Positions 10,507 through 31,040 of a DNA stretch of 64,000 nt are shown here, one piece after another (the stretch's first letter is position 1; the number at the start of each line of letters is the position of its first letter). The DNA comes from Nitrospirales bacterium (GTDB taxonomy: Bacteria > Nitrospirota > Nitrospiria > Nitrospirales > UBA8639). The position numbers were made by a program, and so were the translations under genes. Under the pieces are notes generated by a model. The model saw only the letters and a program-made list of their open reading frames with translations, was not told the DNA's origin and did no database searches. The stretch lies in assembly GCA_965204965.1 (NCBI GenBank), contig OZ242026.1:1738458-1802457 (forward strand), in the 5' to 3' direction.

Positions 10507-10512
10507 AGCGTC

Positions 10513-11716: not shown

Positions 11717-11819
11717 ATTTCCGGCAATCGGACATGTTAATCCGGCGATTGGACATGTTCGAGGGAGTTCCACCTGTTATATACTTGCTTGATTTTGAAA
11801 ATTGGTTTCATGATTAAAC
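11717..11819 (+). promoter_or_regulatory. composite regulatory module F (two 21-bp-phased direct repeats plus a Fur-box-like AT block) upstream of tonB
   Basis: ATTTCCGGCAATCGGACATG | TTAATCCGGCGATTGGACATG at 11717-11757, then TTGATTTTGAAAATTGGTTTCATGATTAAAC at 11789-11819. Confidence 0.55.
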
Positions 11820-11850
11820 ATATAGACATCTGAACCGGCAACGATCGGAA

Positions 11851-13146
11851 ATGCAAACTTCTGCCTTCGGCGCAATACAGGCTCCGCCCTATTGGAACGG
11901 CTGGGCATTATCCGGCTGCTTGCATGCTGTGATGGTCGGGGTCGCCCTGTTCCTTTCACACCAACTGCCTACACCCCAAAAAGCCGCGCGCAACCCCATC
12001 GCCGTTGCCTTCGTCACTCCCGAGCCCACCCGCACGTCCCCTACCCACCGACAGACCATGAAGAAGGCGCCTCCCACACCGACGATCAAACCGAAACAGG
12101 TGCAACCCGAAGTCATCCCCAGGGAACCGGCCCAATCGAAGCCGCATACGCAGACTCAGCCCAGACAAACAGTCTCTCCGCAAACGGTTGTCCACGCTTC
12201 ACCGAAGCCTGCTCCCCTAGCAAAACTTCAAGTTACGAACGCTACGCCAATATCCGTGGCCCAACCCAGGACGGTCAAGCACGCCCAAACGACGCATCAA
12301 CCTGCAGTCAGGAACGGTGTGATCTCGTCTCAACCAAAGACGGTCACCCAAAGAGCTTCTCAGCCTACGGTCAGCAGCGGCGTGATCGCGGCTCAACCGA
12401 TGCCACGGCACACGGGAGACACGCGACACCATCAGGCTCCCAAGGTTCATGCCTCACCTTCTCGTAAGAAACCGGTTCACGTTGAGGCGACAATTGACAA
12501 GCTGGATCCCATCGTGCCACGAGACCCGGTCATCCACCACCATGTCACAAACGTCACCCAACCCATAGCCACCACGGTCAGGGCAGCAGCAGTTCGGCAA
12601 TCCGTGAAGGCCCTACCGTCCCATGTGGAAAAGAGAGTCCACGCTCCGGCGACGGCAGTCAAGAAACAACACATCCCAAACGAAAACGCTCATACGGCAG
12701 TGAGGCATGTTTTCTCGAAACCCGCGCCGCAACAGGCATCACTCTCCTCGGGCACGCCCGTCGTGCAGACACGCACCACGGTCAATTACACCCGCCAATT
12801 GAGAAAAGCCCGTCCGACCACCACTTCACGGTCCGTTTCGGGAGACGGCCTTTCTCCTGAACTCCTGGCCTTCAGCAAACTCCTTCGCGAGAAAGTCGCG
12901 CGAACACTTGTATTCCCGCGTCTGGCCAAACGCCTCGGATATTCCGGAACGACCCACATTGCAATCGCCTTATCGAAAACCGGCATTGTGCGAGAGTTAA
13001 AAGTCTCGCAGCCCTCGGGTTACGAAATTCTGGACAAGGCGGCCATCGTCACGCTGGAAAAAGTGCTTCAAACGACAAAACCACCTGAATCCATCGAGAT
13101 TGAACAGCTTGTTATTCCCATTGCCTTCAATTTGAGGCGAAATTAA
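11851..13146 (+). CDS. tonB: TonB family energy transducer
   Basis: N-terminal TM segment (WALSGCLHAVMVGVALFL), a long Pro/Thr/Gln-rich spacer, and a C-terminal TonB_C-like domain (FPRLAKRLGYSGTTHIAIALSKTGIVRELKVSQPSGYEILDKAAI). Confidence 0.8.
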   Translation: MQTSAFGAIQAPPYWNGWALSGCLHAVMVGVALFLSHQLPTPQKAARNPIAVAFVTPEPTRTSPTHRQTMKKAPPTPTIKPKQVQPEVIPREPAQSKPHTQTQPRQTVSPQTVVHASPKPAPLAKLQVTNATPISVAQPRTVKHAQTTHQPAVRNGVISSQPKTVTQRASQPTVSSGVIAAQPMPRHTGDTRHHQAPKVHASPSRKKPVHVEATIDKLDPIVPRDPVIHHHVTNVTQPIATTVRAAAVRQSVKALPSHVEKRVHAPATAVKKQHIPNENAHTAVRHVFSKPAPQQASLSSGTPVVQTRTTVNYTRQLRKARPTTTSRSVSGDGLSPELLAFSKLLREKVARTLVFPRLAKRLGYSGTTHIAIALSKTGIVRELKVSQPSGYEILDKAAIVTLEKVLQTTKPPESIEIEQLVIPIAFNLRRN

Positions 13147-13184
13147 GTACTCGGAAACCATCTCATCACAAAGGAGAATGCATT

Positions 13185-13625
13185 ATGACTCGCGCTCATT
13201 TCCTTGCGCTACTTCTGGCTCTCACGATCACGCTCCCCATTTCCGTGCTCGCCCAAAACCGCACGTTTACGGCTGAGACCACCGATGCAGACGGCATCCA
13301 AATGTCGGTCTCCAATGCCCGGTTGTACTGGGAAGAGAAAATCGACGAGACGACCTTCGTCCCACATGAAATCACGCATGTTCCGGTCAAACACGGCGCG
13401 GCGACGATCAACGTCAAATTTCAAAAGATCGCGAAAATTCAGGTCAAACCCGATCACCCGGCAAAGGGTCGCCAGGCCCTGACCATCAAACTGTTAAACG
13501 GCAAATCCGGTGAATTCCCCTTGGCGAAGGAAGTCACGCTGATCGGACAATCCGATTTCGGTGAAATCCGTATTCCCATGCAGAACCTGCGGTCCCTGAC
13601 CTTCTCCAAGAAACCCGGTTCTTAA
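13185..13625 (+). CDS. secreted hypothetical protein
   Basis: Signal peptide MTRAHFLALLLALTITLPISVLA, an AGGAGA SD upstream, and a position between tonB and exbB. Confidence 0.55.
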   Translation: MTRAHFLALLLALTITLPISVLAQNRTFTAETTDADGIQMSVSNARLYWEEKIDETTFVPHEITHVPVKHGAATINVKFQKIAKIQVKPDHPAKGRQALTIKLLNGKSGEFPLAKEVTLIGQSDFGEIRIPMQNLRSLTFSKKPGS

Positions 13626-13678
13626 CAATAGGCAACGACCTTGGACCATAAGGGTCAACCCAAGGAGAACGTGAGCGC

Positions 13679-14104
13679 ATGACCGCCTTACACACCATCA
13701 TCGATTTTGGCATTATCGGACTTCTCGTACTGCTGAGCTTGTGGGCCGTTGCCGTTGCCCTGGAACGCTGGCTTTTTTATCGACGCGCGTCCCTGGCTCA
13801 GTTCCCCGACGTGCAGCAATTGGAAATATCACTGACCAAACGATTGGTCGTCATCGGCACCGTAGCCGCGAACGCACCCTACATCGGGCTCTTGGGCACC
13901 GTCCTCGGGATCATGGTCACCTTTCATACCATGGGCACGACCAAGACAATCGAGGTGAGCGCGATCATGGTCGGATTGAGCCTGGCCCTGAAAGCCACGG
14001 CGGTCGGGTTGCTGGTGGCCATTCCCTGTGTCGTCATGAATAACGCGTTGCGCCGCCGCGTGGCGGAGTTGGTGACGCAATACAAGGCCCTCAATGGATC
14101 ATGA
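13679..14104 (+). CDS. exbB: MotA/TolQ/ExbB proton-channel protein
   Basis: NAPYIGLLGTVLGIMVTF motif, 3 TM segments, overlaps exbD. Confidence 0.85.
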   Translation: MTALHTIIDFGIIGLLVLLSLWAVAVALERWLFYRRASLAQFPDVQQLEISLTKRLVVIGTVAANAPYIGLLGTVLGIMVTFHTMGTTKTIEVSAIMVGLSLALKATAVGLLVAIPCVVMNNALRRRVAELVTQYKALNGS

Positions 14105-14468
14105 ACTGAACCAAATCAACGTCATCCCCTTGGTCGACGTGATGTTGGTCCTGCTGGTTATCGTCCTGACGACGGCCACCTTCATTTCGACCGGACAAAT
14201 TCCCGTGGATCTCGCGCAAGCCGACGCCACAAGCGCCACGCCGAGCGAACCGATTACGATTACGATTACGTCGTCAGGAGAACTCTTTCTGGATGGCGCT
14301 CAACTGACACAGGAAGCGATGCTCAACGAATTGCAGCGGTTTCCGCCCGAAACGCTGGTGCTCGTTCGTGCCGATCGCGTGATTCAACTCGAGCAATTCG
14401 TCGACGTCGTGGACGACGTCCGAGGGGCGGGATTAACAAAGATCAGTCTTGCCGTGGCGCAAGAGTGA
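14094..14468 (+). CDS. exbD: ExbD/TolR biopolymer transport protein
   Basis: INVIPLVDVMLVLLVIVLTTATF N-terminal anchor and an ExbD-like periplasmic domain. Confidence 0.85.
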   Translation: MDHELNQINVIPLVDVMLVLLVIVLTTATFISTGQIPVDLAQADATSATPSEPITITITSSGELFLDGAQLTQEAMLNELQRFPPETLVLVRADRVIQLEQFVDVVDDVRGAGLTKISLAVAQE

Positions 14469-14511
14469 CGGCCGGAAGAAGGAAGCGCCGGTTCATACCA
14501 ATTCGTACCGC

Positions 14512-14943: not shown

Positions 14944-14969
14944 GAGGCCAAGGAGCATTTAAGAAGCCA

Positions 14970-15075
14970 CTTTCCGGCAGATGGACATGGATTTCCGGTT
15001 AATGAACATGTCCAAGGATTCTGTTTGTGATAGGGTCTTATGCTGAAATTGATTATGCGTGTCATAATTGTATAT
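14970..15075 (+). promoter_or_regulatory. composite regulatory module U1 upstream of TBDR-1
   Basis: CTTTCCGGCAGATGGACATG | GATTTCCGGTTAATGAACATG at 14970-15010. TGAACA lies 17 nt upstream of TGTGAT. AT block TGCTGAAATTGATTATGCGTGTCATAATTGTATAT at 15041-15075. Confidence 0.55.
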
Positions 15076-15162
15076 GAGTTTGATTTCTGCCATCGTCTCA
15101 AGAGAGATTCAAAATCACATCATATGCCCTGATGCTCATGATAGGGGGGGGGGAAATTCATA

Positions 15163-17499
15163 ATGAAGAGATTCTGGCTTATGGCCGTCCTTGTGTTTCT
15201 TGTATTTTCAACAACCCCAGCTCTCGCGCAAGATGCTGAAGACTCACAAACACAGAAAGTCAAGTTGAGGCTGGAACAGGTCACGATCAGCGCGACCAAG
15301 ACCAAACGGGACACGTTGACCACCCCGGGCGAAGTCAGCGTCCTGAACCAGGAGTATTTTCAACAACGCCAGGCGCAAAGCCTCGACGACGTGTTGCGCT
15401 ACGAACCGGGCGTAACGTCGGGCGGGGGTCCACGGACCATGGCGGAGGGCCCGAACATTCGAGGACTGTCCGGAGATCGCGTCCTTACGCTGCTGGACGG
15501 CATGCGGCTCACCTTCCAATCCGGGCACAAGGGCCGCCTCTTCATAGACATGGACCAACTCAAACAAGTCGAGGTGATTCGCGGACCGGGCTCGGCCCTG
15601 TACGGCAGCCAGGCCGTGGGCGGGGTCGTGGCCATGGAGACCAAGGATCCTTCCGATTATCTGGCCCCGGACATGACGTACGGCATACGGCAAAAGTTCG
15701 GCTACCAATACGCCAATGAAGAGTTGCTCTCCACCACGACCTTATCGGCCCGCCTCACCGATCAGGTCGCGGTCATGACCAGCGGCACTTTCAGGGCCGG
15801 GGAGAACGTTCGCCTCGGCGGTGACTTGGACCGTTTATCCAATTCCGCCCAAGACACCGCGGCCAATCTGAGCAAAATCGTCTGGACACCGACTCCGTAC
15901 GACGAGGCCGAGTTCTCCGTTCAAGCTACTCGACAAGCCGCACAGATCCCCTTCCAGGCTAATTCCATGCCCACCCAGCAAAGTTCCATTGCGGACCGGG
16001 TGAATCGTCAAATCACCTATCGTCTGGGATACACGCATAATGATCCGGCGAACCCCTACCTGGACCTCCGGGGGTTCGTCTATCTGACGACGCTGGACGT
16101 CACGGAAAGCCGGATTACCGATGCATCTCAACGAGACGATTTCGGTTTTGATACCTTTGGATATGATCTCAGGAATTCCATGAACTTCGGCGATCCCTCG
16201 ACGCACCACCACATCGTGACCTTCGGATCGGAATATTTCCGGAACACGCAAGAGAGCACGGGAAGTCGGTATACCAATGAATTCTTTGTTTACACCCCGG
16301 GCCAACGCTGTAATCCACGGGCAGGATTGCTTCCTCCTCGCTGCGGCTTCGTGCCCCCGTATTTCACTACCCCTATTCCTGCCGGCCTGACTGCCGCAAC
16401 CACTCCCCTGGGAGCCGAAACATTTTTCCCTGCTGCAAAAGCCGATACCTTTGCCCTGTACGTTCAGGACGAGATGACGATTGTCGACCGCGTCACCCTC
16501 ATTCCCGCGCTACGCTGGGATAATTGGGAGAATAGAGCGTCCGGCCGGGAAACCAGATCCGCCAGTGTCCTCAACCCGAAAATCGGAACGGTCATCCAGG
16601 TCACGGACTTCCTGTTTCTCACGGCAAACTACGCCCATGGATTCCGTCAACCCACGTTCGGGGAACTCTTTATCTCCGGCACGCATTTGCCCGGCAGCGT
16701 ATTTCGGGCGAATCCCGACTTGAAACCGGAACGCAGCCGGAATATCGACGCCGGATTCCGCCTGAATGTGCCCAAGGTGCTTTCCAACAACGATCAGTTC
16801 ATTTTCAAGGGGACTTACTTCAGAAACACGTTCAAGGATTTTATTGACTTTGTCTCCGGAGGATCGGGCACACCGCACGTGTGCAATACTGAAATGCCGA
16901 ATTTCAGACAAGGACAGAGGCCTTGTCCCTGGATCAGTTTTGGCACTTCCGCACGGCCGGGATTCCACCTGGGCACACTCCTTCAGCAGGGACAGCCAAA
17001 TATCCAAACGTTCAGGAACGTGCCTGATGCTCTGATCCACGGAGTGGAAGCCGAGTTTGAATGGCGCGCGATTGAGAACGTCGTCCTGTCCGGGAACTAC
17101 ACCTTCACGCACGGTACGGATCAAACCAATGGACGGCCAATAAACAACATTCCCCCGAATCGCGGCGTGCTGGGGATCGACTATTTCTACGATGCTTGGG
17201 GATTAAACCTGGGGGCCCGATCGCAAATGGTAGCCGATCAGGATCGCGTGCCGGTCTCCGATGATCCCTTCGTGGCCGGGACCCCAACCCCCGGCTACGT
17301 GCTGTTCGACATCTGGGCCAATGTGCAACCGGCCAAGGCATTGCTCCCCGAGCTTCCGAAGTCGTGGCTTCAAGGGTTTCGCCTCAACCTGGGGGTGGAT
17401 AACCTGACGGACCGTAACTACCGGCGGCATTTGTCATCCCTTCCCGAGGCGGGAGTCAATCCCAAGATATCGTTTTGGTACTCCTTGAATCTGCCCTGA
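15163..17499 (+). CDS. TonB-dependent outer-membrane receptor, paralog 1 (heme-receptor-like motifs)
   Basis: Signal peptide, plug domain (TLTTPGEVSVLNQEYFQQRQAQSLDDVLRYEPGV), GFRQPTFGELFISGTHLPGSVFRANPDLKPE (FRAP-like, His, NPNL-like), and a C-terminal ...FWYSLNLP. Confidence 0.9.
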   Translation: MKRFWLMAVLVFLVFSTTPALAQDAEDSQTQKVKLRLEQVTISATKTKRDTLTTPGEVSVLNQEYFQQRQAQSLDDVLRYEPGVTSGGGPRTMAEGPNIRGLSGDRVLTLLDGMRLTFQSGHKGRLFIDMDQLKQVEVIRGPGSALYGSQAVGGVVAMETKDPSDYLAPDMTYGIRQKFGYQYANEELLSTTTLSARLTDQVAVMTSGTFRAGENVRLGGDLDRLSNSAQDTAANLSKIVWTPTPYDEAEFSVQATRQAAQIPFQANSMPTQQSSIADRVNRQITYRLGYTHNDPANPYLDLRGFVYLTTLDVTESRITDASQRDDFGFDTFGYDLRNSMNFGDPSTHHHIVTFGSEYFRNTQESTGSRYTNEFFVYTPGQRCNPRAGLLPPRCGFVPPYFTTPIPAGLTAATTPLGAETFFPAAKADTFALYVQDEMTIVDRVTLIPALRWDNWENRASGRETRSASVLNPKIGTVIQVTDFLFLTANYAHGFRQPTFGELFISGTHLPGSVFRANPDLKPERSRNIDAGFRLNVPKVLSNNDQFIFKGTYFRNTFKDFIDFVSGGSGTPHVCNTEMPNFRQGQRPCPWISFGTSARPGFHLGTLLQQGQPNIQTFRNVPDALIHGVEAEFEWRAIENVVLSGNYTFTHGTDQTNGRPINNIPPNRGVLGIDYFYDAWGLNLGARSQMVADQDRVPVSDDPFVAGTPTPGYVLFDIWANVQPAKALLPELPKSWLQGFRLNLGVDNLTDRNYRRHLSSLPEAGVNPKISFWYSLNLP

Positions 17500-17564: not shown

Positions 17565-17597
17565 GAGAGGCCGGCAAATGTCGGCCTCTCTTTTTTT
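17565..17597 (+). terminator. rho-independent terminator after TBDR-1
   Basis: GAGAGGCCG-GCAAATGT-CGGCCTCTC followed by T7. Confidence 0.8.
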
Positions 17598-17726: not shown

Positions 17727-17826
17727 TTTTTCCGGTAGATCAACATGCTTTTCCGGTCTCTGAACATTTTCAAAGGGTGGAATTTATGATTATTATTTGA
17801 AATTAGTTATGCGTATCAAGATCATA
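17727..17826 (+). promoter_or_regulatory. composite regulatory module U2 upstream of TBDR-2
   Basis: TTTTTCCGGTAGATCAACATG | CTTTTCCGGTCTCTGAACATT at 17727-17768. TGAACA (17761-17766), an 18-nt spacer, then TATGAT (17785-17790). Fur-box-like TGATTATTATTTGAAATTAGTTATGC follows. Confidence 0.6.
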
Positions 17827-17897
17827 TCCGCAAAGCCCTCTTGCATGCATTTCAAGATCCACCCCGTCACTCATCATCGCTAATCAAGGAGGGCTGT

Positions 17898-20039
17898 ATG
17901 CATAAACCATTTACTCTCTTGGCAGTCGTTCTGCTTCTGGGTCTTTTCACAAGCCAGGCGCACGCGCAGGGCACTGAAGAAACCGAAGCCGAGGGACCCC
18001 CTAAAATCAAGATGCGACTCCAACAGGTCACAGTCAGCGCGACTAAAACCGAACGGGATCCGTTGACCACCCCTGGCGAGGTGAACGTCCTGACCCAGGA
18101 ATATTTTCAGCAGCGCCAGGCCCAAAGCCTGGACGACGTCCTGCGCTATGAACCGGGCGTTGATTCGATTTTAGGCCCGCGAACCATGGGAGAGAGCCCG
18201 AATATTCGAGGGCTGTCGGGTGCGCGGGTGCTCACGCTGGTGGATGGTGTCCGGCTCAACTTTCAATCCGGGCACAGAGGCCGCCTCTTTTTGGATATGG
18301 ATCAACTCAAGCAAGTCGAAGTGATTCGCGGACCGGGATCGGCCCTGTACGGCAGCCAGGCCCTGGGCGGGGTCGTCGCCATGGAGACCAAGGACCCCTC
18401 CGACTATCTGGCTCCGGACATGCAGTACGGCATACGACAAAAGCTCGGCTACCAATACGGCAATGAAGAACTGCTCTCCACCACCACCCTATCGGGCTGG
18501 CTCACCGGTCAGATCGAAGTCATGACCGCCAACACCATTCGGGCCTCCGGGGATATTCGACTCGGCGGCGACCTGCCGCGCTTGGCCAATTCCTCGCAAG
18601 ACACCTATGGGAATTTGAGCAAGATCGTCTGGGTACCGACTGCGCACGATCGAGCTGAATTTTCCCTTCAAGCCAATCGACAAACCGCGCGGATCCCCTT
18701 CAGCACCACCTCGACAACCACTTCACCCACATCCATCAGCGACCGTGTGAACCGTACGTTCACGTATCGCTTGGAGTACAAACATAATAATCCGTCGAAT
18801 CCGTATTTGAATCTTCAGGGATTCGCCTATCTCACGACCATGGACATCGACCAAACCGTGATTGCCAATCAGCAAAAAGACCACATCCGTTACGATACCT
18901 TGGGATATGACATACGAAATTCCATGAATTTCGGCAATCCTTCGTCTCATCATCACATCGTGACCATCGGGTCGGAATTTTTCCGGAACTCCCAGGAGGG
19001 GAGAGGGAATCGGATCAGCAGCTTTTCAGGGGCTCCGACGGGAGCCCCGCTGTATTGGCCCACCGCGGAATCGAGCGTCTTCGCCCTGTACGTGCAGGAC
19101 GAGATGACGATCATGGATCGCCTCACCGTGATTCCCGCCCTCCGATGGGATCATTGGGACAACGAGAGGGACGGACAGGAAACCAGATCTTTGGGTGTCC
19201 TCAACCCGAAAATCGGCGCCGTCTATCAGGTCACGGATTTCCTGTATCTTTCGGCGAACTACGCCCATGGATTCCGGCAACCCACGTTCCAGAACCTCTT
19301 TATCTCCGGCACGCACTTTCCGGGTACCGTTTTCGCTCCCAATCCCGACCTGGGCCCGGAACGCAGCCGGAATATCGACTTGGGCGTCCGGGTCAACCTG
19401 CCCAAGATGCTTTCCGATGATGACCGGTTCATTTTCAAGGGAGCGTATTTCAGAAACCAACTCAGAGATTTCATTGCCACGAACACGGTGTGTCCCGATG
19501 GTTCCCCGCCACGGGGGTTCTTCAACCCTTGCACCTCCGGACAGGCCATGACCGTCTACTATAACGTCCAACAGGCCCTGATCCAGGGCTGGGAGGCGGA
19601 ATTCGAATGGCGTGTCAGTGACAGCCTGGTTTTGAACGGGAACTACAGTCAGGCCCACGGGACTGATGAAATATCCAATATGCCATTACCCAACATTCAG
19701 CCGCGACGCGGTCTACTGAGCATCAACTATCTCTACGCGCCGTGGGGATTGTCTCTCGGCGCCCGAACGCAAATGGTGGCCGACATTACCCGAGTGCCGA
19801 TCCCGAGTTTCGGCGATCCAAATACACCCGGAGGCTACGCGATCTTCGATATCTGGGCCATCGTGCAACCCGGCACGGCCCTGTTGCCCGAACTCCCCAA
19901 ATCATGGCTTCAGGGATGGCAGGTAAACCTTGGAGTCGATAACCTGTTCGATCGCGAATATCGTCGAAACTTGTCACCTCTTCAGGAGATGGGGGTCAAT
20001 CCCAAGATACAGGTGTGGTACAACCTTAATCTTCCTTAA
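17898..20039 (+). CDS. TonB-dependent outer-membrane receptor, paralog 2
   Basis: AAGGAGGG SD then ATG at 17898, signal peptide MHKPFTLLAVVLLLGLFTSQAHA, a plug nearly identical to paralog 3, and GFRQPTFQNLFISGTHFPGTVFAPNPDLGPE. Confidence 0.9.
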   Translation: MHKPFTLLAVVLLLGLFTSQAHAQGTEETEAEGPPKIKMRLQQVTVSATKTERDPLTTPGEVNVLTQEYFQQRQAQSLDDVLRYEPGVDSILGPRTMGESPNIRGLSGARVLTLVDGVRLNFQSGHRGRLFLDMDQLKQVEVIRGPGSALYGSQALGGVVAMETKDPSDYLAPDMQYGIRQKLGYQYGNEELLSTTTLSGWLTGQIEVMTANTIRASGDIRLGGDLPRLANSSQDTYGNLSKIVWVPTAHDRAEFSLQANRQTARIPFSTTSTTTSPTSISDRVNRTFTYRLEYKHNNPSNPYLNLQGFAYLTTMDIDQTVIANQQKDHIRYDTLGYDIRNSMNFGNPSSHHHIVTIGSEFFRNSQEGRGNRISSFSGAPTGAPLYWPTAESSVFALYVQDEMTIMDRLTVIPALRWDHWDNERDGQETRSLGVLNPKIGAVYQVTDFLYLSANYAHGFRQPTFQNLFISGTHFPGTVFAPNPDLGPERSRNIDLGVRVNLPKMLSDDDRFIFKGAYFRNQLRDFIATNTVCPDGSPPRGFFNPCTSGQAMTVYYNVQQALIQGWEAEFEWRVSDSLVLNGNYSQAHGTDEISNMPLPNIQPRRGLLSINYLYAPWGLSLGARTQMVADITRVPIPSFGDPNTPGGYAIFDIWAIVQPGTALLPELPKSWLQGWQVNLGVDNLFDREYRRNLSPLQEMGVNPKIQVWYNLNLP

Positions 20040-20104: not shown

Positions 20105-20136
20105 GAGAGGCCGGTCTTTGCCGGCCTCTCTTTTTT
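20105..20136 (+). terminator. rho-independent terminator after TBDR-2
   Basis: GAGAGGCCGG-TCTTTG-CCGGCCTCTC followed by T6. Confidence 0.8.
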
Positions 20137-20256: not shown

Positions 20257-20354
20257 TTTTCCGGCAGATCGACATGCTTTTCCGGTCTCCGAACATTTCC
20301 ATACAGCTGGGTTTATGATTATCATTTGATATTGGTTATGCATGTCAAGATCAG
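20257..20354 (+). promoter_or_regulatory. composite regulatory module U3 upstream of TBDR-3
   Basis: TTTTCCGGCAGATCGACATG | CTTTTCCGGTCTCCGAACATT at 20257-20297. CGAACA, an 18-nt spacer, then TATGAT. Fur-box-like TGATTATCATTTGATATTGGTTATGC follows. Confidence 0.6.
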
Positions 20355-20424: not shown

Positions 20425-22521
20425 ATGCATAAACCACTTACTTGCCTGGCAGTCCTTCTGCTTATGGGGTTTTTTACAGGCCAGGCGCAGGCGCGGGACA
20501 CTGAAGAGGCCGAAGCCGAGGGGCCCCCTAAAATCAAGATGCGGCTCCAACAGGTCACGGTCAGCGCGACCAAAACCGAACGGGATCCGTTGACCACCCC
20601 TGGCGAAGTGAGCGTCCTGACCCAGGAATATTTTCAACAACGCCAGGCCCAAAGCCTGGACGACGTCCTGCGCTATGAACCGGGCGTTGATTCACGGATA
20701 GGCCCCAGAAACATGGGTGAGGGTCCGAATATTCGAGGATTGCAGCGTGCGCGGGTCCTGACGCTGCTGGACGGCGTCAGACTCAACTTTCAGGCCGGGC
20801 ACAAAGGCCGCATCTTTATTGACATGGATCAACTCAAACAAGTGGAGGTGGTTCGCGGTCCGAACTCGGCCTTGTACGGCAGCCAAGCGCTGGGGGGTGT
20901 CGTGGCCATGGTGACCAAAGACCCTTCCGATTATCTGGCCCCGGACATGCAGTACGGCATCCGTGAAAAATTCGGTTACCAGTACGTCAATGAGGAACTG
21001 CTGTCCACCACCACCTTATCAGCCCGCCTCACCAAGAACGTGGAATTCATGGCCAGTGGGACCTACCGGGCCGGCGAGAATATTCGACTCGGCGGCGACT
21101 TGCCGCGTTTGGCCAACTCCGCCCAGGACACCGCAGCCGGATTGACCAAACTAGTGTGGAAACCGACGCCGTATGACGAAGCCAAATTGTCCATTCAAGC
21201 CACTCGCCAGGCCGCGCGCATTCCCTTCAATACCAACTCCGGAACCTCCTCAACGAGGTCCATCTCCGACCGCGAGAACCGTCAAGTCACGTACCGCTTG
21301 GGTTATGCCCATCATAATCCGGCCAATCCGTATTTGAACCTCCGGGGGTTCGTGTATCTGACGACGCTGGACATCACGGAAATCCAGCTTTCCAATCAGG
21401 CAAGGGACGATATCACTTTCGACACGTTCGGGTATGATCTCAGAAATTCCATGAACTTCGGCAATCCTTCATCGAACCATCACATCGTGACCTTCGGATC
21501 CGAATTTTACCGGAACAGCCAAACGGGTGACGGAAGTCGCACAACCTCTTCCGGAGGACTCACGGGAGCCCGGGTGTTTTATCCCGATGCGGACTCTGAC
21601 GTTTTCGCCCTGTACCTGCAGGATGAGATCACCATCATGAATCGCCTCAACCTCATCCCCGCCTTGCGCTGGGATCATTGGAAAAATACGGCGCCGGACC
21701 AAGACGCCCAATCCGTGGGTGTCCTCAACCCGAAAATCGGCGCGGTGTTTCAAGTGACAGACTCTCTGTTCCTGACGGCAAACTATGCCCATGGTTTCCG
21801 GCAACCGACGTTTGCCCAGCTCTTTATCTCCGGCACGCATGCCGCGGGAAGCATTTTTGTTCCGAATCCCGACCTGAGTCCGGAACGGAGCCGGAACATC
21901 GACGTGGGATTCCGGGTGAAATTGCCAAAGATGCTCTTCAACCAGGATCGATTCATTTTCAAGGGAGCCTACTTCAGAAACCAGATCAGGGACTACATTG
22001 CCCTGTTCCGCTATGGACCGAGAAACATCAACAGAACCTACCGGAACATCGGAAATGCCATGATCCATGGCATGGAGGCGGAATTCGAATGGCGCGTCCT
22101 TCAGAACCTCGCCCTGCGCGGTAACTACAGCCTGGCGCACGGCACGGATGAAACCCTGGATAATCCACTGCCGGACATTACGCCTCAACGTGGGGTCTTG
22201 GGCATCGATTATCTGCACCAGCCTTGGGGATTGACCATGGGCGGCCGCACTCAAATGGTCGGCAACCAGGAACGCGTGCCGAGACCGGCGCGGGGCTCCA
22301 GACAGAGAACCGGCGGCTTTGTCATCTTCGATATCTACGCCACGGTGCAACCCGCCCGGGCGTTGCTCCCCGAACTTCCAAAATCATGGTTGCAAGGGTT
22401 TCAACTCAACATCGGCGTCGACAACCTAACGGATCGAAAGTACCGCCGGCATCTGTCATCCCTTCCCGAAGCCGGGGTCAATCCCAAGATATCGTTTTGG
22501 TACTCCATTAACTTTCCCTGA
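20425..22521 (+). CDS. TonB-dependent outer-membrane receptor, paralog 3
   Basis: Signal peptide MHKPLTCLAVLLLMGFFTGQAQA, plug domain, GFRQPTFAQLFISGTHAAGSIFVPNPDLSPE, and a C-terminal ...FWYSINFP. Confidence 0.9.
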   Translation: MHKPLTCLAVLLLMGFFTGQAQARDTEEAEAEGPPKIKMRLQQVTVSATKTERDPLTTPGEVSVLTQEYFQQRQAQSLDDVLRYEPGVDSRIGPRNMGEGPNIRGLQRARVLTLLDGVRLNFQAGHKGRIFIDMDQLKQVEVVRGPNSALYGSQALGGVVAMVTKDPSDYLAPDMQYGIREKFGYQYVNEELLSTTTLSARLTKNVEFMASGTYRAGENIRLGGDLPRLANSAQDTAAGLTKLVWKPTPYDEAKLSIQATRQAARIPFNTNSGTSSTRSISDRENRQVTYRLGYAHHNPANPYLNLRGFVYLTTLDITEIQLSNQARDDITFDTFGYDLRNSMNFGNPSSNHHIVTFGSEFYRNSQTGDGSRTTSSGGLTGARVFYPDADSDVFALYLQDEITIMNRLNLIPALRWDHWKNTAPDQDAQSVGVLNPKIGAVFQVTDSLFLTANYAHGFRQPTFAQLFISGTHAAGSIFVPNPDLSPERSRNIDVGFRVKLPKMLFNQDRFIFKGAYFRNQIRDYIALFRYGPRNINRTYRNIGNAMIHGMEAEFEWRVLQNLALRGNYSLAHGTDETLDNPLPDITPQRGVLGIDYLHQPWGLTMGGRTQMVGNQERVPRPARGSRQRTGGFVIFDIYATVQPARALLPELPKSWLQGFQLNIGVDNLTDRKYRRHLSSLPEAGVNPKISFWYSINFP

Positions 22522-22590: not shown

Positions 22591-22622
22591 GAGAGGCCGA
22601 CCCACGTCGGCCTCTCTTTTTT
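22591..22622 (+). terminator. rho-independent terminator after TBDR-3
   Basis: GAGAGGCCGA-CCCAC-GTCGGCCTCTC followed by T6. Confidence 0.8.
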
Positions 22623-24032: not shown

Positions 24033-24035
24033 CTT

Positions 24036-25950: not shown

Positions 25951-25970
25951 ACTTCGCAAAGGAAAATCTA

Positions 25971-26075
25971 CAACCGGTTATCGGACATCCTTTTCCGGCA
26001 AATGAACATGTACGTCCGTTGCCGCAAACTGCTATCATCTAAAACTTGATATTGATTCCTTATTTCAATATTAAG
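25971..26075 (+). promoter_or_regulatory. composite regulatory module D upstream of the CbiX-like gene
   Basis: CAACCGGTTATCGGACATC | CTTTTCCGGCAAATGAACATG at 25971-26010. AT block GCTATCATCTAAAACTTGATATTGATTCCTTATTTCAATATTAAG at 26031-26075, containing the inverted repeat ATATTGA...TCAATAT. Confidence 0.55.
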
Positions 26076-26084
26076 TAGGCTACC

Positions 26085-27758
26085 ATGCAACGTCACACAA
26101 GTAAGCTGTTCCTTGCCCTAACTCTATTGACGATCATCTGCAGCAGTCCCCTGCCTGTTCTCGCACAATCCCATCCAGGCTTTTTGGTCATTGCGCCGGA
26201 CCGCGGATATCTGGAGAATCAGGAGACCAACGAACTCTTCGAGGAATTTCAGCGTGCTTACCCCGCGTCTCTGGCTTTGGTCGGCGATCAAGATGGATAC
26301 CATGGGCCCGCGTATAATGAATACCTCAAGGAATCTGTCCAGCACTTACAGTCATTGAACGCGACGTCCATCGTTGCCATTCCTTTGTTTCTTTCCGATG
26401 CCGAACCGCAGCTGCAGGCAGTTCGTGACATTTTGCAAAGCCACACCGGCGATATGGCCGTCGAATGGGCTCCGGCAATGGCCGGGAGTCACCTGATCGG
26501 ACAGATCCTGCTCGACCGGGTCGAAGAAATCAGCCAGTCACCTGAAGACGAACGACTCGTTCTGGTCGGAATGGGTGCGCATGACGAAAAGAGTGAACAG
26601 GCTATCAAGGAAAACTTAACAGGACTGCTGAAGTACATCCAGCGATATAAGTCGTTCGAGGATAGCGAAGCAGTGGTCTACTATGCTTGGAATGCGGAAC
26701 AACGCCGTGAGAAGAATAAAGAAGTGGAGGCACACATCACGGAACTGGCTGCAAAGCAAGGCCGTACCTTGATGGTCCCGGCTTTCATCGGTGCCAAGTT
26801 CACTCACATGATGGCCGCAACGAACTGGATGCACCGCAAATTCAAAAAAATGAACGTGGTCTTTCAGCCATCGGAGGTTGTTCCTCATCCCAATCTGCTG
26901 TTGTGGCTCAAGAAAACCGCCAATCAGTACCTCACTGACATCAGTCCAAGCGAAATCGGGGTCGTCCTCATGCCCCATGGTTCATCACAGCCTTACAACG
27001 ACGCCATTGAAAAGCTCGTCAAACCTCTTACAGGCCGCTATCAAATTGAAATGGCTGATGGCATGGGCGATGCGGCCATCATTCAACAGGCCGTATCCCG
27101 TCTTGAACAACGGGGCGTGAAACGCATCGTGTTCGGAAGGATTTTTGGCCTCATCAATACCTTTAAACCCAAAACAGACTATATTCTTGGTCTTTCAGAC
27201 GAGTATCTCAAAGACCTCGACGAGGATCGCACCCCCCCTGCACAAATTCGAAGCGGCGCCATGTTCTCCACTTTCGGCGGATATGAGGAAGATGCCGTCA
27301 CGGCGCAGATACTGCATGAACGGATTATGGAGATCAGTCAAAACCCTTCAGAGGAAACGGTCGTACTCCTGGCGCACGGAACGGGATCCGACGAATCCAA
27401 CGAGCGATGGTTGTCGGCCATCAATGCCAATATCGAAACACTTCGTCAGGATCCGCATTGCGCAAAATTGAAAGCCATCAAGGCCATGACCGTCAGGGAA
27501 GATTGGCCTAAGCTACGGAAAAAAGCGGTTAAGGAAGTACGGGAATTCATTAAGGAAAGCAATAAAACCGGAAAGGTCTTGGTCATCTCCAATCGCCTCT
27601 ACGGCCCGGGACCGTATCCCAAAATGCTGGCCGGCCTTGATTTCGAAATCAACGGAAAAGGTTTTCTCTCTCCGGCCATGGCACACTGGCTTGACCAATC
27701 CATTCAGCAAGTGACTGAAGAGCTCAAAGGACCGGTAAGGCTTGCTGGACAAAGTTAG
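26085..27758 (+). CDS. secreted protein built from repeated CbiX/SirB-like (class II chelatase fold) half-domains
   Basis: Sec signal peptide MQRHTSKLFLALTLLTIICSSPLPVLA. Four CbiX-like segments: IVAIPLFLSDAEPQ, LVLVGMGAHDEKSE, GVVLMPHGSSQPYNDAIEKL and VVLLAHGTGSDESNERW. Confidence 0.55.
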   Translation: MQRHTSKLFLALTLLTIICSSPLPVLAQSHPGFLVIAPDRGYLENQETNELFEEFQRAYPASLALVGDQDGYHGPAYNEYLKESVQHLQSLNATSIVAIPLFLSDAEPQLQAVRDILQSHTGDMAVEWAPAMAGSHLIGQILLDRVEEISQSPEDERLVLVGMGAHDEKSEQAIKENLTGLLKYIQRYKSFEDSEAVVYYAWNAEQRREKNKEVEAHITELAAKQGRTLMVPAFIGAKFTHMMAATNWMHRKFKKMNVVFQPSEVVPHPNLLLWLKKTANQYLTDISPSEIGVVLMPHGSSQPYNDAIEKLVKPLTGRYQIEMADGMGDAAIIQQAVSRLEQRGVKRIVFGRIFGLINTFKPKTDYILGLSDEYLKDLDEDRTPPAQIRSGAMFSTFGGYEEDAVTAQILHERIMEISQNPSEETVVLLAHGTGSDESNERWLSAINANIETLRQDPHCAKLKAIKAMTVREDWPKLRKKAVKEVREFIKESNKTGKVLVISNRLYGPGPYPKMLAGLDFEINGKGFLSPAMAHWLDQSIQQVTEELKGPVRLAGQS

Positions 27759-27804
27759 CGTTTACTCATATTAACCATTTCTTCACTGATAGGGAGGAAG
27801 ATTT

Positions 27805-28053
27805 ATGCAATACATTTACCAACTCACACGGTCATTCCTGATCCTCGGTCTTCTGGCATTCGCACTGGTCGTTGGTTTTTCAGGAATAACCTTGGCCGAC
27901 GAAAAAGCGGCCGAAGGGGAAGCAAAAGCTTCCAGCGAGAAGAAAGCCGACGGTGAGATGAAGGCGGATGGCGATGCCAAAGCCGACGGTGAGAAAAAAT
28001 CGGATGGCGATGCCAAAGCTGAGGGGGAAGAAAAAGCCCCGGCATCCAAATAA
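27805..28053 (+). CDS. small secreted or anchored acidic/lysine repeat protein (KADGE repeats), copy 1
   Basis: GGGAGG SD upstream. MQYIYQLTRSFLILGLLAFALVVGFSGITLA hydrophobic leader, then DEKAAEGEAKASSEKKADGEMKADGDAKADGEKKSDGDAKAEGEEKAPASK. A paralog lies at 34365..34601. Confidence 0.65.
   Translation: MQYIYQLTRSFLILGLLAFALVVGFSGITLADEKAAEGEAKASSEKKADGEMKADGDAKADGEKKSDGDAKAEGEEKAPASK
27965..28019 (+). repeat. 36-bp-period direct repeat inside the KADGE gene
   Basis: CGGATGGCGATGCCAAAGC occurs at 27965-27983 and again at 28001-28019. Confidence 0.8.
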
Positions 28054-28070
28054 GCAGTGCTATGGATCCT

Positions 28071-28100
28071 GCGGAACTGAGGTTCGCGCCTCAGTTCCGC
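28071..28100 (+). other. 12-bp-stem hairpin GCGGAACTGAGG-N6-CCTCAGTTCCGC (no U-tract)
   Basis: Perfect inverted repeat. The same hairpin follows the paralogous small gene at 34635..34665. Confidence 0.7.
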
Positions 28101-28181
28101 CCTTGTCTGACCCCGACGGCAACGGATCATCGTCAAAGCGGGGAATGCAAAGCTTCGGCGCGCCAACCTCCCTTCTCAATC

Positions 28182-28376
28182 ATGAACAAGAAATCCGTCT
28201 CTTCGCGCTCTCTCCATGAAAGGCGCTGCCAGTGCGGGCAGTTGCTTGCGAAGATCGGACCTCAAGGATTAGAACTGAAATGCAATCGTTGCGGACGTCT
28301 TCTCACTCTTTCTCCCCCGTTTTCACATACCAGGATACGCATCTCCCCTAAGGACAAAAAAGTGGGGAACCGATAG
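28182..28376 (+). CDS. small Com-like zinc-ribbon protein, paralog 2 (64 aa)
   Basis: MNKKSVSSRSLHERRCQCGQLLAKIGPQGLELKCNRCGRLLTLS has the same CxC...CxxC layout as 2400..2597. Confidence 0.5.
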   Translation: MNKKSVSSRSLHERRCQCGQLLAKIGPQGLELKCNRCGRLLTLSPPFSHTRIRISPKDKKVGNR

Positions 28377-28535
28377 GAGGCACGGTCCCCGATTGACGCC
28401 GTTCGTTTCCGGCGTCAAACCGTTCCCCCTCACCCAAGCCCTTCCTCGCCTTCAGAAATAGTGTTTCCCTGTACAGACAGAGTTAGTGCCCCCCCGCCAA
28501 CTTCAACTCGCAAGGGTCGCGTGACAACCTGGGGC

Positions 28536-28573
28536 AACCCCTCCCCCCAACCCTCTCACAGGGAGAGGGTTGG
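28536..28573. repeat. REP-like palindrome type I, inverted orientation
   Basis: AACCCCTCCCCCC-CCAACCCTCTC-ACAGG-GAGAGGGTTGG. Confidence 0.7.
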
Positions 28574-28751
28574 AGAGTCTATGGTGCTATGTGCTCCAAA
28601 CTTTTGGCCAGACTGACCGCCAGCGGGCTTTTTCCGCCATGAACGTCTGATAGAGGAATCCCATGACGACGCAGACCACAAGTGCAGCACGAGATGCCAT
28701 GACGGGGACGGAGACTGATCGGAAGCCTGCACCTTCTCCAACACCTGTCCC

Positions 28752-29483
28752 TCAACGGTCGTTGTTTGCTGCGCAACCGTCGGCGACAGTTGATGACCGT
28801 GAAAAGAGCGCGACATCCGTACCGGAGAGGTTCTTGCCGTAGAGATCGATGTCCGGCAGCTTTTTCTCCCAGGTTCTTTCGTCAGGGCCGTAGATATGAC
28901 CCATGCGATCCAGATAGAGGTTCGCCAATTTTTCGTCCGTTTCCCACGTATCCGAGGCCAGGCTGGCGGTTTCCAATCCCGAGCCGTATTCTCCTCGTTC
29001 GTTGGAGAAAAAACGTATGGTGGACAACGTTTCGGCTTCCTCTGGTTCAATGCCCGACGCCAGCAGGTCCTGCTCGATGCGGGCGGAGTGCTGCGCAACG
29101 AAGTTGTCTTCTTCCTGTAATCGTGCGACCTGTTCGATGGCTTTCGAAATGAGCGTCATCACGTTCGGGAAGGCGTCACGATACAGACCCGTGGGCAATG
29201 ACTCCGGATTGTTGATCGGTCCCCTACCCGTAGACGTTGGAATATATTTTCCCTCCAAGGCCATAGTCAGCGATTTGAGTTCCTGCCGGCCCAGCAGGTC
29301 GGCATAATATTCCCTCGCCTTCTCCAGAAACCCGCGCAGTTCCGAAGACATGGTCTCCGCCGGGTCGACACCTTCCACCACGTGTGTTTTGACGAGCCGG
29401 TATTCAGGCGTGTGTTCCAATTCGTCGTATCGCATGGGTGTGTTCCCACCAAAAATAAGCGCATCGCCGTTCTCCGATGGCAA
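28752..29483 (-). pseudogene. internal fragment of a CobN/BchH/HmuS-type large chelatase subunit
   Basis: ALEGKYIPTSTGRGPINNPESLPTGLY and RFFSNERGEYGSGLETASLASDTWETDEKLANLYLDRMGHIYG match conserved CobN-family blocks. Only 243 aa are present, whereas the family is over 1000 aa. The reading frame is continuous upstream into the truncated TBDR in a shifted frame. Confidence 0.6.
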
Positions 29484-29485
29484 GT

Positions 29486-30619
29486 TTAGCGTACCCGCGA
29501 CCGCAAGCTTGTTGGCCAGGGTGACGTAGGAATCCCCCAGCGGACGCGGGCATCATCGATCCGCGCTTGGAACCCGACCGTCGCCATAACTTCGAGATCC
29601 GCCAATCGCAGCAGGTGTTGATAGCCAACGTCGCTGCCATAGACCCAGCGTCGATCTTTCTGTTCGATCCCGTCGCCGTTGACCGGATCATTCAGCAAAA
29701 AAGTGAAATTGGTGAACAACGAGAGTTGATAGTGCTGGGTCCAGACTTTGGCGAACACCTTCTTTAGCGGAGACAAGTCATAATAGTAGTCGAGACGGGC
29801 CGTGGTGCGAGCCGTTTCTCCCCCTTCGGATAGGTCTATGGCTCCGAAGCGATCGAGACGGCGCGTGCTGACTTCCCTCAACGGAATCTGGCCCGATCCG
29901 TTCCAACGCCCGTAATGCTGCGTCAGAGTGAAACGCAACCGGGATTCGGGTGTGGGATCAAAAGAGATCTTGGCCAAGCCGTTGTAGCGTATATTGCGAT
30001 TCACGAAGAGGAACGGACCGTCGGTGTAGTAAAACTCCCCGGCAAAAAGGGTACGAACGTCGTCCTGCACGGGCGACGTCATGAACAGGTGTCGCTGCGT
30101 GTTGAACTGGCCACCACTCGTCTGCACCACGGTCTCGGGGACGACCTCACGTGTCACGTAATTCACGGCCCCCGCTGTCGCAAAATCGCCATATTCAACG
30201 TAATAGGGACCCTTTTTCACAACGATTTCCCGAATGGGTTCCGGAATGATAAAGTTCAGGTCAGCGTAACCCTGTCCATGCGCATGGCTGCGAAGATTGA
30301 CCGGCATGTTGTCCACGTGGAAGGCAAGGTCCATCCCATGATCGCCGTCGAACCCGCGAAGCAAAAATTGGTCGGCCTTGCCCGCGCCCCCTGAATGTTC
30401 GAGGATGATGAGCCCAGGCGCCAAGCGGAGAAGATCTGCCGGGCGGCCTTGAGGTTGGAGCACGATGTCCTCATCCGGAATAATCCGGTTGGACGATGCC
30501 GCGGTGGGACGTTTCCCATTGACGACCATCACCGGAAGAGTCTGAACGGTCTCCGGGGTATGCGCTTCACCGTGCATAGGGAGGAACACGCACAAGACCA
30601 CCAACAGATATTTCTTCAT
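29486..30619 (-). pseudogene. truncated TonB-dependent receptor (signal peptide, plug and first barrel strands only)
   Basis: MKKYLLVVLCVFLPMHGEAH signal peptide and a plug (ADLLRLAPGLIILEHSGGAGKADQFLLRGFDGDHG). It is 377 aa versus 698-778 aa for the intact receptors here. Its C-terminal 18 aa look out of frame. Confidence 0.6.
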
Positions 30620-30683
30620 GGATCCTCCTGAACATCAGCTATTCAGTCTTACAGCACCACATCTCGCTGATCAGACGAATGGA

Positions 30684-30917
30684 CTACGATCTCTCGTCAT
30701 TCTCCGGCACATAGATTAAGGATCCATCCTCCAATCGATAGGCAATCCCCGCGCGCACGCCGTCGCCTCCTCCGATTTGTCCGGTCGATTTGTGGCGTTC
30801 GATTTTCTTCCCATTCTTGACGATGATTTCCATGTCATCTTTCTCGGAATTTTTGATGATCGTGAGATCTTCACTGAAAAAAGGGTTCAATGGCGATCCG
30901 TGTAAATGTGGACCCAT
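30684..30917 (-). CDS. small hypothetical protein (77 aa)
   Basis: An ORF heading the minus-strand TBDR-remnant unit. No recognisable family and a weak SD. Confidence 0.3.
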   Translation of the reverse strand: MGPHLHGSPLNPFFSEDLTIIKNSEKDDMEIIVKNGKKIERHKSTGQIGGGDGVRAGIAYRLEDGSLIYVPENDERS

Positions 30918-30927
30918 ACGTTTTCAC

Positions 30928-31040
30928 CCGAACCGGCGGATCAACATGTTTTCCCGGAAAATGAACATGGCCAAGACATAACCTCCATGATAGACTTATG
31001 ATGATATTGAGTTCTATTACTATAATCACTATTAATTGAC
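30928..31040 (+). promoter_or_regulatory. composite regulatory module E
   Basis: CCCGAACCGGCGGATCAACATG | TTTTCCCGGAAAATGAACATG at 30928-30969. TGAACA, an 18-nt spacer, then CATGAT. AT block ...TGATGATATTGAGTTCTATTACTATAATCACTATTAATTGAC. Confidence 0.5.

Follow-up and report, generated by a model that had tools for sequence, protein, structure and literature searches.

A composite promoter module occurs six times in a 64 kb stretch of the genome of a Nitrospirales bacterium (contig OZ242026.1; the whole stretch of 64,000 nt is called the window below), upstream of tonB, three TonB-dependent receptor genes, a secreted CbiX-like gene and an HD-GYP gene. Each copy consists of two direct repeats in strict 21-bp phase, a -10-like hexamer with a poor -35 sequence, and an AT-rich block that resembles a Fur box. 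It is rather likely that these six promoters combine a class II AraC/XylS-type activator site with a Fur-family operator at genes for iron and heme uptake. An AraC-type gene (6461–7102, + strand) lies in the same window.

Repeat pairs, core promoters and AT blocks

At all six sites the half-site has the invariant core CCGG-N7-ACAT (flanked form tTCCGGt.aaTGrACATg) and is present as two tandem copies, the distance from one CCGG to the next being exactly 21 bp in every case (11721/11742, 14974/14995, 17732/17753, 20261/20282, 25974/25995 and 30933/30954). The original prediction had located the six sites correctly on the + strand and had recognised their phasing, but the variable spacer (N6-7) and 20–21 bp register that it gave reflect how the flanks were delimited, and the core spacing is constant. 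When both strands of the window were searched for CCGG-N7-ACAT-N6-CCGG-N7-ACAT with at most one mismatch, six matches were found, against 0.00 expected from 100 dinucleotide-preserving shuffles. A position weight matrix (PWM) of the half-site scored the 12 half-sites at 15.5–33.4 bits and all other positions (128 kb, both strands) at no more than 11.7 bits, a test that is circular, although the gap in score is nonetheless large. The pairs are all intergenic, on the + strand and 73–181 nt 5′ of the starts of + strand open reading frames (ORFs); no pair was found on the - strand of the window or inside any of its genes. A lone half-site at 7086, at the 3′ end of the AraC-type gene and just before a pump operon, was rejected as a functional site and is taken to be a chance occurrence, because it is unpaired and is not kept at the same place in the related locus L001. 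Sites 17727 and 20257 are paralogous copies, and the remaining four have only the motif islands in common.

The 21-bp spacing also holds in the 41 module instances collected from Nitrospirales genomes (see below), which have the consensus ttTCCGGt.aaTggACATg.tTtTCCGGt.aaTGaACATgt. Self-correlation of their position matrix gives r = 0.94 at a shift of 21 bp, but -0.04 at 10 bp and 0.00 at 11 bp, and values for 10–12 bp all lie within -0.04 to 0.04. Since there is self-similarity at 21 bp and none at 10–11 bp, the unit is a single asymmetric bipartite element of ~17 bp, with its CCGG and ACAT centres 11 bp apart. This geometry fits what would be expected for a monomer of an AraC/XylS protein that carries a pair of helix-turn-helix (HTH) motifs, and is unlike that of an OmpR/PhoB-type protein. 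Either binding mode had been proposed; boxes of the OmpR/PhoB type, which are direct repeats of a 10–11 bp unit, were discarded on the near-zero correlation at that shift.

A -10-like hexamer (A at position 2 and T at position 6, i.e., of the TAnnnT type) is found 21–26 nt after the proximal ACAT in 40 of the 41 instances, with 33 of these at 22–24 nt, and a TG is present at the extended -10 position in 16 of the 41. The best -35 sequence matches at no more than 4/6 positions in every instance. In the same clade, a perfect TTGACA is present where promoters have a Fur box only (HD-GYP orthologs, exbB of locus L118, and the promoter at 2268 of the window). The -10 elements supported by orthologs lie 22–24 nt past ACAT (TAGGGT, TATTAT, TATCAT, TATACT and TAGACT) and are often preceded by TGn. 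The proximal repeat had been thought to supply a -35 hexamer (TGAACA or CGAACA) for a -10 of TATGAT, TGTGAT or CATGAT, an assignment that is not borne out, as orthologs keep the hexamer at 22–24 nt instead; with the -10 in that position, the spacing at the tonB and CbiX-like sites, previously described as deviant, equals that at the other sites. The combination TGAACA-N17-18-TATGAT, which appeared in a promoter scan for site 3, was rejected because two relatives (L055+149, L055+2778) lose TATGAT and retain the hexamer 6 nt downstream.

If transcription begins about 7 nt after the -10 (a predicted and not a mapped start), the distal CCGG and ACAT would lie at -70 to -67 and -59 to -56, the proximal CCGG and ACAT at -49 to -46 and -38 to -35, and the AT block at -5 to +24. 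The placement of the proximal ACAT at about -38 to -35 follows from the position of the -10-like hexamer 21–26 nt downstream together with the poor match (no more than 4/6) to a -35 element.

All six window sites have a downstream AT block, as originally described, in the form of a TGA-N15-TCA 21-mer that begins 31–40 nt past the proximal ACAT; this form is present in 29 of the 41 instances and usually begins 0–11 nt after the -10. Its resemblance to a Fur box is supported by the conserved positions, which agree with the Fur consensus. The cross-class consensus of the block, TGAwATTGATT-N5-TATCA (21–25 bp), coincides with the Fur 21-mer TGATAATGATAATCATTATCA, and the features TGA.A.TGAT.....TATCA are shared across non-homologous promoter classes and two genera. 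In the receptor 1 block, as footprinted by ten orthologs, agreement with the Fur 21-mer extends to 13 of the 15 invariant positions. The mean best match to the Fur 19-mer GATAATGATAATCATTATC is 12.1/19, compared with 10.1 ± 1.0 in shuffled sequences. The block of locus L012 (TGAGAATTACTATCA) scores 13/15 against TGATAAT-n-ATTATCA when the spacer is counted as a match, which is equal to 12 of 14 specified positions. In ~240 kb of related loci, most non-canonical hits of at least 14/19 to the Fur consensus sit in module blocks, and in every locus the blocks rank with the top matches to that consensus. Canonical Fur boxes of the clade reach 17/19 (GATAATGAATATGATTATC, overlapping a consensus TTGACA promoter at the HD-GYP orthologs of OZ252040 and CBDDOW), and in relatives such boxes hold the equivalent position at HD-GYP and exbB promoters. 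The AT block overlaps the putative core promoter of genes for TonB, heme-type receptors and an Fe2+ transport protein, and a FUR-domain gene is present at the edge of L118. An Rfam scan of the leaders found no family at gathering thresholds (one implausible sub-threshold small RNA hit was returned), and known RNA elements or riboswitches in the leaders were set aside accordingly. From its agreement with the Fur 21-mer, the iron-related targets and neighbours, and the lack of an Rfam match, we infer that the AT block is a Fur-family operator of moderate consensus match.

The six promoters, all on the + strand, are as follows. Repeat pair 1 (ATTTCCGGCAATCGGACATG followed directly by TTAATCCGGCGATTGGACATG; 11717–11757) is 5′ of the tonB-hyp-exbB-exbD-DUF2141 operon and has orthologous sites in L001, OZ241337, JAAXIB58, OY282373 and OZ251550; its promoter (11780–11810) has a -10-like TATACT at 11780–11785 and the Fur-like block TGATTTTGAAAATTGGTTTCA at 11790–11810. 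Pair 2 (14970–15010), footprinted across ten genomes, precedes receptor 1 (15163–17499), with an extended -10 TGaTAGGGT at 15028–15036 and the Fur-like block TGAAATTGATTATGCGTGTCA at 15044–15064 (promoter 15028–15064). Pair 3 (17728–17768) lies upstream of receptor 2 (ORF 17841–20039), whose promoter (17791–17818) carries a -10-like TATTAT at 17791–17796 and the block TGAAATTAGTTATGCGTATCA at 17798–17818. Its paralogous counterpart, pair 4 (20257–20297), is 5′ of receptor 3 (20425–22521), the promoter (20320–20347) having a -10-like TATCAT at 20320–20325 and the block TGATATTGGTTATGCATGTCA at 20327–20347. Pair 5 (25970–26010), in which the distal copy is weaker (ACAACCGG...ACATC), precedes the secreted CbiX-like gene (26085–27758) and has orthologs in L020, L025, L043, L070 and JAAXIB58; the extended -10 TGcTATCAT is at 26030–26038 and the block TGATATTGATTCCTTATTTCA at 26047–26067 (promoter 26030–26067). 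Pair 6 (30929–30969), upstream of the HD-GYP gene (31150–31971), is lineage-specific, and is followed by an extended -10 TGaTAGACT at 30988–30996 and the AT block TGATATTGAGTTCTATTACTATAATCA at 31002–31028 (promoter 30988–31028).

Conservation and turnover in Nitrospirales

If the module is a functional promoter, it might be expected to stand before orthologous genes in related genomes. At least 41 unique instances were found in about 14 Nitrospirales genomes, another genus included. Modules were assigned to genes by joining adjacent tiles and mapping the proteins of the window, and orthologs of tonB, receptors 1, 2 and 3 and the CbiX-like gene were found to be preceded by the module in OZ241337, CBDDOW, OZ252040, OY282373, JAAXIB58, OZ251550, OY729426, SB0662 and ATF24. 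The expectation holds for these genes and fails for the HD-GYP gene (see below). The module is also found before genes for other receptors, for an Fe2+ transport protein (PF10634) and for a Gly-rich secreted protein of 161 aa that is transcribed divergently. A MAFFT alignment of ten orthologous receptor 1 promoters shows three islands of conservation, namely the repeat pair, TG-n-TA and a 25-bp block, with the sequence elsewhere unconstrained; the ribosome-binding site comes after them. The earlier view that conservation goes beyond copy history is supported by the occurrence of the module at both orthologous and non-orthologous genes in ~14 genomes and by the unconstrained spacers between islands. 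Judging from these comparisons, the module is a conserved composite promoter.

A scan of GTDB species genomes for the phased pair returned at least 114 stretches, with 22 from Nitrospirales/Nitrospirota among the matches listed, often several per genome. The listed matches outside Nitrospirota are scattered singletons, many of them in GC-rich Actinobacteria, or parts of tandem-repeat arrays (L033, L060, L076, L079), and are due to chance or unrelated. Six of the module-bearing contigs, matched by identical length, encode homologs of the AraC-type regulator (P0034, P0043, P0044, P0046, P0047 and P0070).

Five further loci were picked by regulator homology alone (L001, L002, L117, L118 and L119). 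All five lie in TonB or iron neighbourhoods, and four have a recognisable module. L001 (regulator 59% identical) has the same synteny, with the module before tonB and receptor 1. L002, from Ca. Nitronereus thalassa (45%), carries three modules, before hyp-exbBD, a receptor and tonB, and L119 (46%) has a single one with a degenerate distal copy. In L117 (about 40%) a degenerate module before tonB was recognised by manual reading, a 42-bp PWM scan of L117 and L118 having given no hits at 8 bits or more. The exbB promoter of L118 consists of TTGACA and a Fur box only.

The HD-GYP site differs from the other five, and its module, which had been counted among the conserved ones, cannot be described in that way. 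The orthologs in OZ252040 and CBDDOW have a classical TTGACA plus Fur-box promoter only, with no pair, and the gene is absent from OY282373. In OZ241337 a decayed pair (CCAA...ACAA / CCGG...ACGT) is found 5′ of an intact TTGACA plus Fur-box promoter. The window has the reverse condition, i.e., an intact pair, -10 and AT block, together with a remnant of the ancestral Fur-only promoter (31095–31142, + strand) whose -35 region, aligned to TTAAGT, is degraded and whose Fur box CATAATGATCATACTTATT (31124–31142) has weakened to 14/19. This looks like promoter turnover from Fur-only control to activator plus Fur. An HD_5 (HD-GYP) gene also occurs immediately 5′ of the distant regulator homologs in L117 (6907–7617) and L118 (8584–9291), and as it adjoins the regulator in both, the link between HD-GYP and the iron locus is probably older than the sixth module of the window.

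Modules of the class driving the ~160-aa Gly-rich secreted protein (C-terminal CHSVxPQGGH) are found at L017 6745–6780 (-), L091 ~6513 (+), L086 ~7274 (-) and L101 ~2492 (-), and consist of the pair and -10 with a palindrome of the GTCAAGAATTATTGAC type further downstream.

The AraC-type regulator and the proposed mechanism

ORF 6461–7102 encodes an AraC-type protein of 213 aa (HTH_18 of Pfam, 66.6 bits), the candidate cognate regulator; its stop codon overlaps the start of the HlyD/MacB-type pump operon (7099–11681). No other regulator gene was found in the first 34 kb of the window, in agreement with the original prediction that it is the sole regulator in the neighbourhood, and members of its family are found in tight linkage with TonB and iron loci. 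Close homologs of 170–230 aa number about 107, the named ones all from Nitrospira sp. metagenome-assembled genomes (MAGs) or Ca. Nitronereus thalassa, and the family appears restricted to Nitrospirales as far as sampled. Even at 35% identity, homologs still adjoin genes for TonB, receptors or iron. Over the same range of overall identity there is hardly any variation in the two predicted recognition helices, GYSEKYCS and GFQDQFSFSHFFKK, in parallel with the invariant DNA motif.

In the family alignment, conservation starts near residue 52. AlphaFold, run with this alignment, predicts residues 1–46 to be disordered, followed by a lone long helix at 50–91 (predicted local distance difference test, pLDDT, about 70–86), a linker and, at 105–210, an AraC DNA-binding domain of seven helices that is predicted with confidence. 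Sequence hits in the PDB (YesN, RamA, AraC, MarA, SoxS) cover the DNA-binding domain only, and no Pfam or PDB match outside that domain was supported. A marginal DARPin hit (E = 0.003) suggesting an ankyrin-like N-terminus was rejected, as the region is predicted to be disordered and is unconserved. As modelled, the regulator has no ligand- or effector-binding domain. The invariant Cys137 presumably occupies a buried helix-3 position, by alignment to MarA, and no claim is made for it as a sensor. The suggestion that the regulator belongs to the siderophore-responsive PchR/YbtA class was abandoned, since the N-terminal effector domain of ~150–200 aa is missing; that absence, together with the heme-type receptors, places it outside the siderophore-sensing class of PchR, YbtA and FoxR.

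A decayed second copy of an AraC-type regulator gene is present at 33527–33706 (+) of the window (45% identity to residues 72–131 by tblastn, E = 2.5e-15); it contains an in-frame stop and has lost the HTH part. The Fur consensus is matched at 15/19 by each of two overlapping sequences (GAAAATGATTATGGTTTTCATTATA, 9807–9831) that lie ~190 bp 5′ of the regulator gene in L002 (Ca. Nitronereus thalassa), which suggests a putative Fur-to-activator cascade in that genus. A mini-ORF resembling the zinc ribbon of Mu Com (C.CGQL[IL]AK...LE[VL]KC[KN]RC) recurs beside iron, FMN-binding and regulator loci in several genomes, at ~2460–2545 (+) and ~28227–28310 (+) of the window, in L117 (two copies), L119 and OZ252040; its product might be a small protein with a regulatory role.

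In the mechanism that we propose, the start site, the identity of both bound proteins and the direction of regulation are deduced from the DNA. An AraC/XylS-type activator would bind as a dimer, each protomer reading one CCGG-N7-ACAT element by placing its first HTH at CCGG and its second at ACAT, a helical turn apart; a dimer is suggested by the two strictly phased boxes and by the predicted 42-residue helix. The proximal element would abut the place of the missing -35, from where the activator could bring RNA polymerase to promoters whose sole core element is a -10 or extended -10 (class II activation). The 6461–7102 product, with its long helix and DNA-binding domain, is the likeliest candidate for this activator, and it would probably act through its abundance or a partner rather than a bound small ligand. 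A Fur-family repressor on the AT block (about -5 to +24, over the predicted start) would block transcription when iron is replete, giving an AND-type gate that opens when iron is low and the activator is present. Of the working model put forward originally, Fur repression plus a dedicated activator, the architecture, its conservation and its linkage to the genes concerned are observed, and the siderophore-sensing activator and the -35/-10 assignment have been given up. A bolder version, which we consider improbable as it stands, is that the disordered tail, dimerising helix and DNA-binding domain without an effector domain form a new AraC architecture, a master activator of TonB-dependent heme and iron uptake, tonB-exbBD included, in marine and symbiotic Nitrospirales, with a second signal arriving through a partner or through abundance. 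The Com-like mini-protein is a candidate for such a partner, and the dependence would be comparable to that of the chaperone-dependent AraC activators InvF and MxiE.

Several observations weigh against the combined activator and Fur reading. The restriction of the motif to Nitrospirales and its co-occurrence with the regulator hold among the matches listed only. No recognisable pair is present within ±10 kb in L118, the most distant regulator locus examined (about 35% identity), from which it appears that the regulator family is broader than the motif, and the regulator itself has no sensing domain. No Fur gene was found within the window, and no Fur-like box 5′ of gene 6461 in either the window or L001. 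Single blocks match the Fur consensus only moderately (11–15/19), their right half deviating; 12 of the 41 instances do not have the TGA-N15-TCA form, and the module class driving the secreted 161-aa protein shows no Fur-like block.

Some of these points would suit a different DNA-binding protein. Another transcription factor encoded elsewhere, for example a response regulator, might bind the pair while the AraC-type protein controls only the MacB-type pump operon; the missing sensor domain and the condition of L118 are consistent with this, as is the lack of a pair 5′ of the regulator and pump operon itself. We consider it rather unlikely, as the 21-bp asymmetric bipartite unit is typical of AraC/XylS and not of OmpR/PhoB proteins, no other regulator is common to the loci, and the regulator family shares its contigs with the motif, both being confined to Nitrospirales as far as the sampling goes. 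GAAC-containing -35 elements are typical of extracytoplasmic function (ECF) sigma promoters, so the proximal GAACAT could also be read as such a -35 with the upstream copy incidental, and an ECF-type sigma gene does lie ~5 kb from the regulator in L002. This is very unlikely given that both copies are equally conserved and strictly phased, that the downstream element (TAnnnT/TGnTAnnnT) is of the housekeeping -10 type and not the CGT-type of ECF promoters, and that no ECF sigma gene is found in the window or is common to the loci.

For the AT block, the alternatives to a Fur operator are a site for some other repressor, a second sigma-70 promoter (TTGAAA-N17-AATTGT) or a conserved 5′-leader element. 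The moderate individual matches, the variation of the block with gene class, and the TTGAAA with a weak -10 17 bp downstream in the receptor class lend this some weight, but the Fur 21-mer features are shared across promoter classes and two genera (13/15 invariant positions), the leaders match no Rfam family, the block of the CbiX-like class is too near the ribosome-binding site for a promoter role, and canonical Fur boxes hold the equivalent position in the HD-GYP and exbB promoters of relatives; a non-Fur block is unlikely, though to be taken seriously. That the similarity reflects copy history alone, a promoter cassette having spread by duplication without selection on the motif, is scarcely credible: sites 17727 and 20257 are indeed paralogous and the receptors are tandem duplicates (60–69% identical), but the six regions are unrelated outside the islands, the spacers of orthologs have diverged while the islands were kept, and the module stands 5′ of unrelated genes (tonB, CbiX-like, Fe2+ transport, 161-aa secreted) and persists across genera.

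Gene context and relation to known systems

Gene identities were assigned with Pfam and NCBIfam, and confirmed the earlier gene calls. The AraC-type ORF and the HlyD / ABC / FtsX / FtsX (MacB-type) pump operon are followed by tonB, a hypothetical gene, exbB, exbD and DUF2141; next come the three TonB-dependent receptors, two spermidine-synthase-like/tetratricopeptide repeat genes and the secreted CbiX-like gene, the product of which has only faint CbiX/chelatase similarity, and then decayed CobN-like and Plug-only genes (-), the HD-GYP gene (HD_5) and a PIN-TRAM gene. Elsewhere the window is housekeeping as far as checked (GlnD, pilM/pilO, Lpt, ribosomal proteins). All three receptors pass the TIGR01785 heme/hemoglobin cutoff (426–435 vs 317 bits) and fail the siderophore-receptor cutoff (175–209 vs 223.5), and no siderophore biosynthesis genes were seen. 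A strong intrinsic terminator follows receptor 1 (17565–17590, +), with near-identical ones at 20105–20130 and 22591–22616, one after each receptor gene; each has the form GAGAGGCCGG-loop-CCGGCCTCTC then T6. The three were evidently duplicated along with the receptor genes, and because a strong terminator follows each of these, each receptor module probably heads its own transcription unit. Neighbours in related loci include ferritins, a FUR gene and a ferric ABC transporter.

Three other features of the window were noted. At 28752–30619 (-), a CobN/Mg-chelatase fragment (243 aa) lies directly 3′ of a Plug-only receptor fragment (377 aa), the latter with an 88% ortholog in OZ241337; they look like a decayed pair of receptor and CobN-like (HmuS-like) genes for putative tetrapyrrole uptake. 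A small secreted Lys/Asp/Glu/Ala-rich repeat protein is encoded after the CbiX-like gene (27805–28053, +), a position kept in OZ252040, where the repeat is Pro/Ala/Glu-rich. The consensus promoter TTGACA-N17-TATTTT at 2268–2296 (+) is followed by a perfect 12-1-12 AT palindrome (AAAAATAAAAATCATTTTTATTTTT, 2325–2349), which could be another operator for a Fur-family or other repressor; the two precede a Com-like ORF and an operon of porin-like, lipoprotein, FMN_bind and Aq_1264_TM genes, divergent from ApbE.

In the systems governed by PchR, YbtA, AlcR, DesR and Btr, Fur derepression at low iron is combined with an AraC-type activator that boosts receptor and transport genes. The Nitrospirales module shares this logic, but those proteins, with a length of at least ~300 aa (Btr has about 530), contain a domain that binds a ligand or siderophore, whereas the Nitrospirales regulator has only ~50 conserved helical residues before its DNA-binding domain, unlike the PchR/YbtA class. 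Its NCBIfam hit to Btr covers the DNA-binding domain only (55.7 against a cutoff of 900 bits). In having little beyond the two-HTH domain, an activity set by abundance and an asymmetric bipartite box of ~20 bp, it would resemble MarA, SoxS and RamA, and in size it is nearer to MarA and SoxS than to the siderophore-sensing class; these bind single boxes as monomers and serve a stress/efflux regulon, whereas the module has two phased boxes and would serve metal uptake.

XylS sites at the Pm promoter have a 21-bp period, with the proximal site overlapping or adjacent to the -35. Pm, of the TOL plasmid, has two 15-bp direct repeats, each composed of box A-N6-box B and read by helices 3 and 6 (PMC5481539). 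The likeness lies in the paired 15-bp bipartite direct repeats, and would take in the reading of each repeat by the two recognition helices of one monomer and the activation of RNA polymerase by a dimer. The sequences differ (TGCA-N6-GGNTA there, CCGG-N7-ACAT here), and XylS has a benzoate-binding N-terminal domain, serves a catabolic pathway and is not combined with a Fur operator. At foxA of Salmonella enterica, the binding site of FoxR is a pair of direct repeats upstream of -33, and the -10 is covered by a Fur box (PMC9804782). An AraC-family gene adjoining a receptor and a weak -35 are common to the two systems; the paired direct repeats, on which binding and activation depend at foxA, would also lie upstream of about -33 in Nitrospirales, where the Fur-like block is the putative counterpart of the Fur box on the foxA core promoter. 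The Nitrospirales motif, unlike that of FoxR, is found at several heme-type receptors, the tonB-exbBD operon and non-receptor genes, and the Fur-like block probably covers +1, not the -10. FoxR possesses an N-terminal domain and owes its stabilisation to ferrioxamine, and its gene is Fur-repressed, whereas the Nitrospirales regulator is without a ligand domain and no Fur-like box precedes its gene in the window. In function, the module would follow an established design, in which promoters for TonB-dependent uptake are under Fur and an AraC-type activator; of most interest is the unusually minimal regulator.

Nitrospirales have a key part in nitrite oxidation, their demand for iron and heme is very high, and most of their marine and symbiont lineages are uncultured. 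To our knowledge, gene regulation in these lineages is essentially unknown, and a literature search found no paper on iron- or heme-responsive promoters, this motif or this regulator in Nitrospira. With its two copies of tTCCGG-N7-ACATg in 21-bp phase, its -10 and its Fur-like box, the module provides a precise and searchable signature for a metal-acquisition regulon in MAGs. The turnover of the HD-GYP promoter would link cyclic di-GMP turnover to iron status, and the proteobacterial design of AraC activator plus Fur at receptor promoters would be extended to another phylum, with a minimal regulator.

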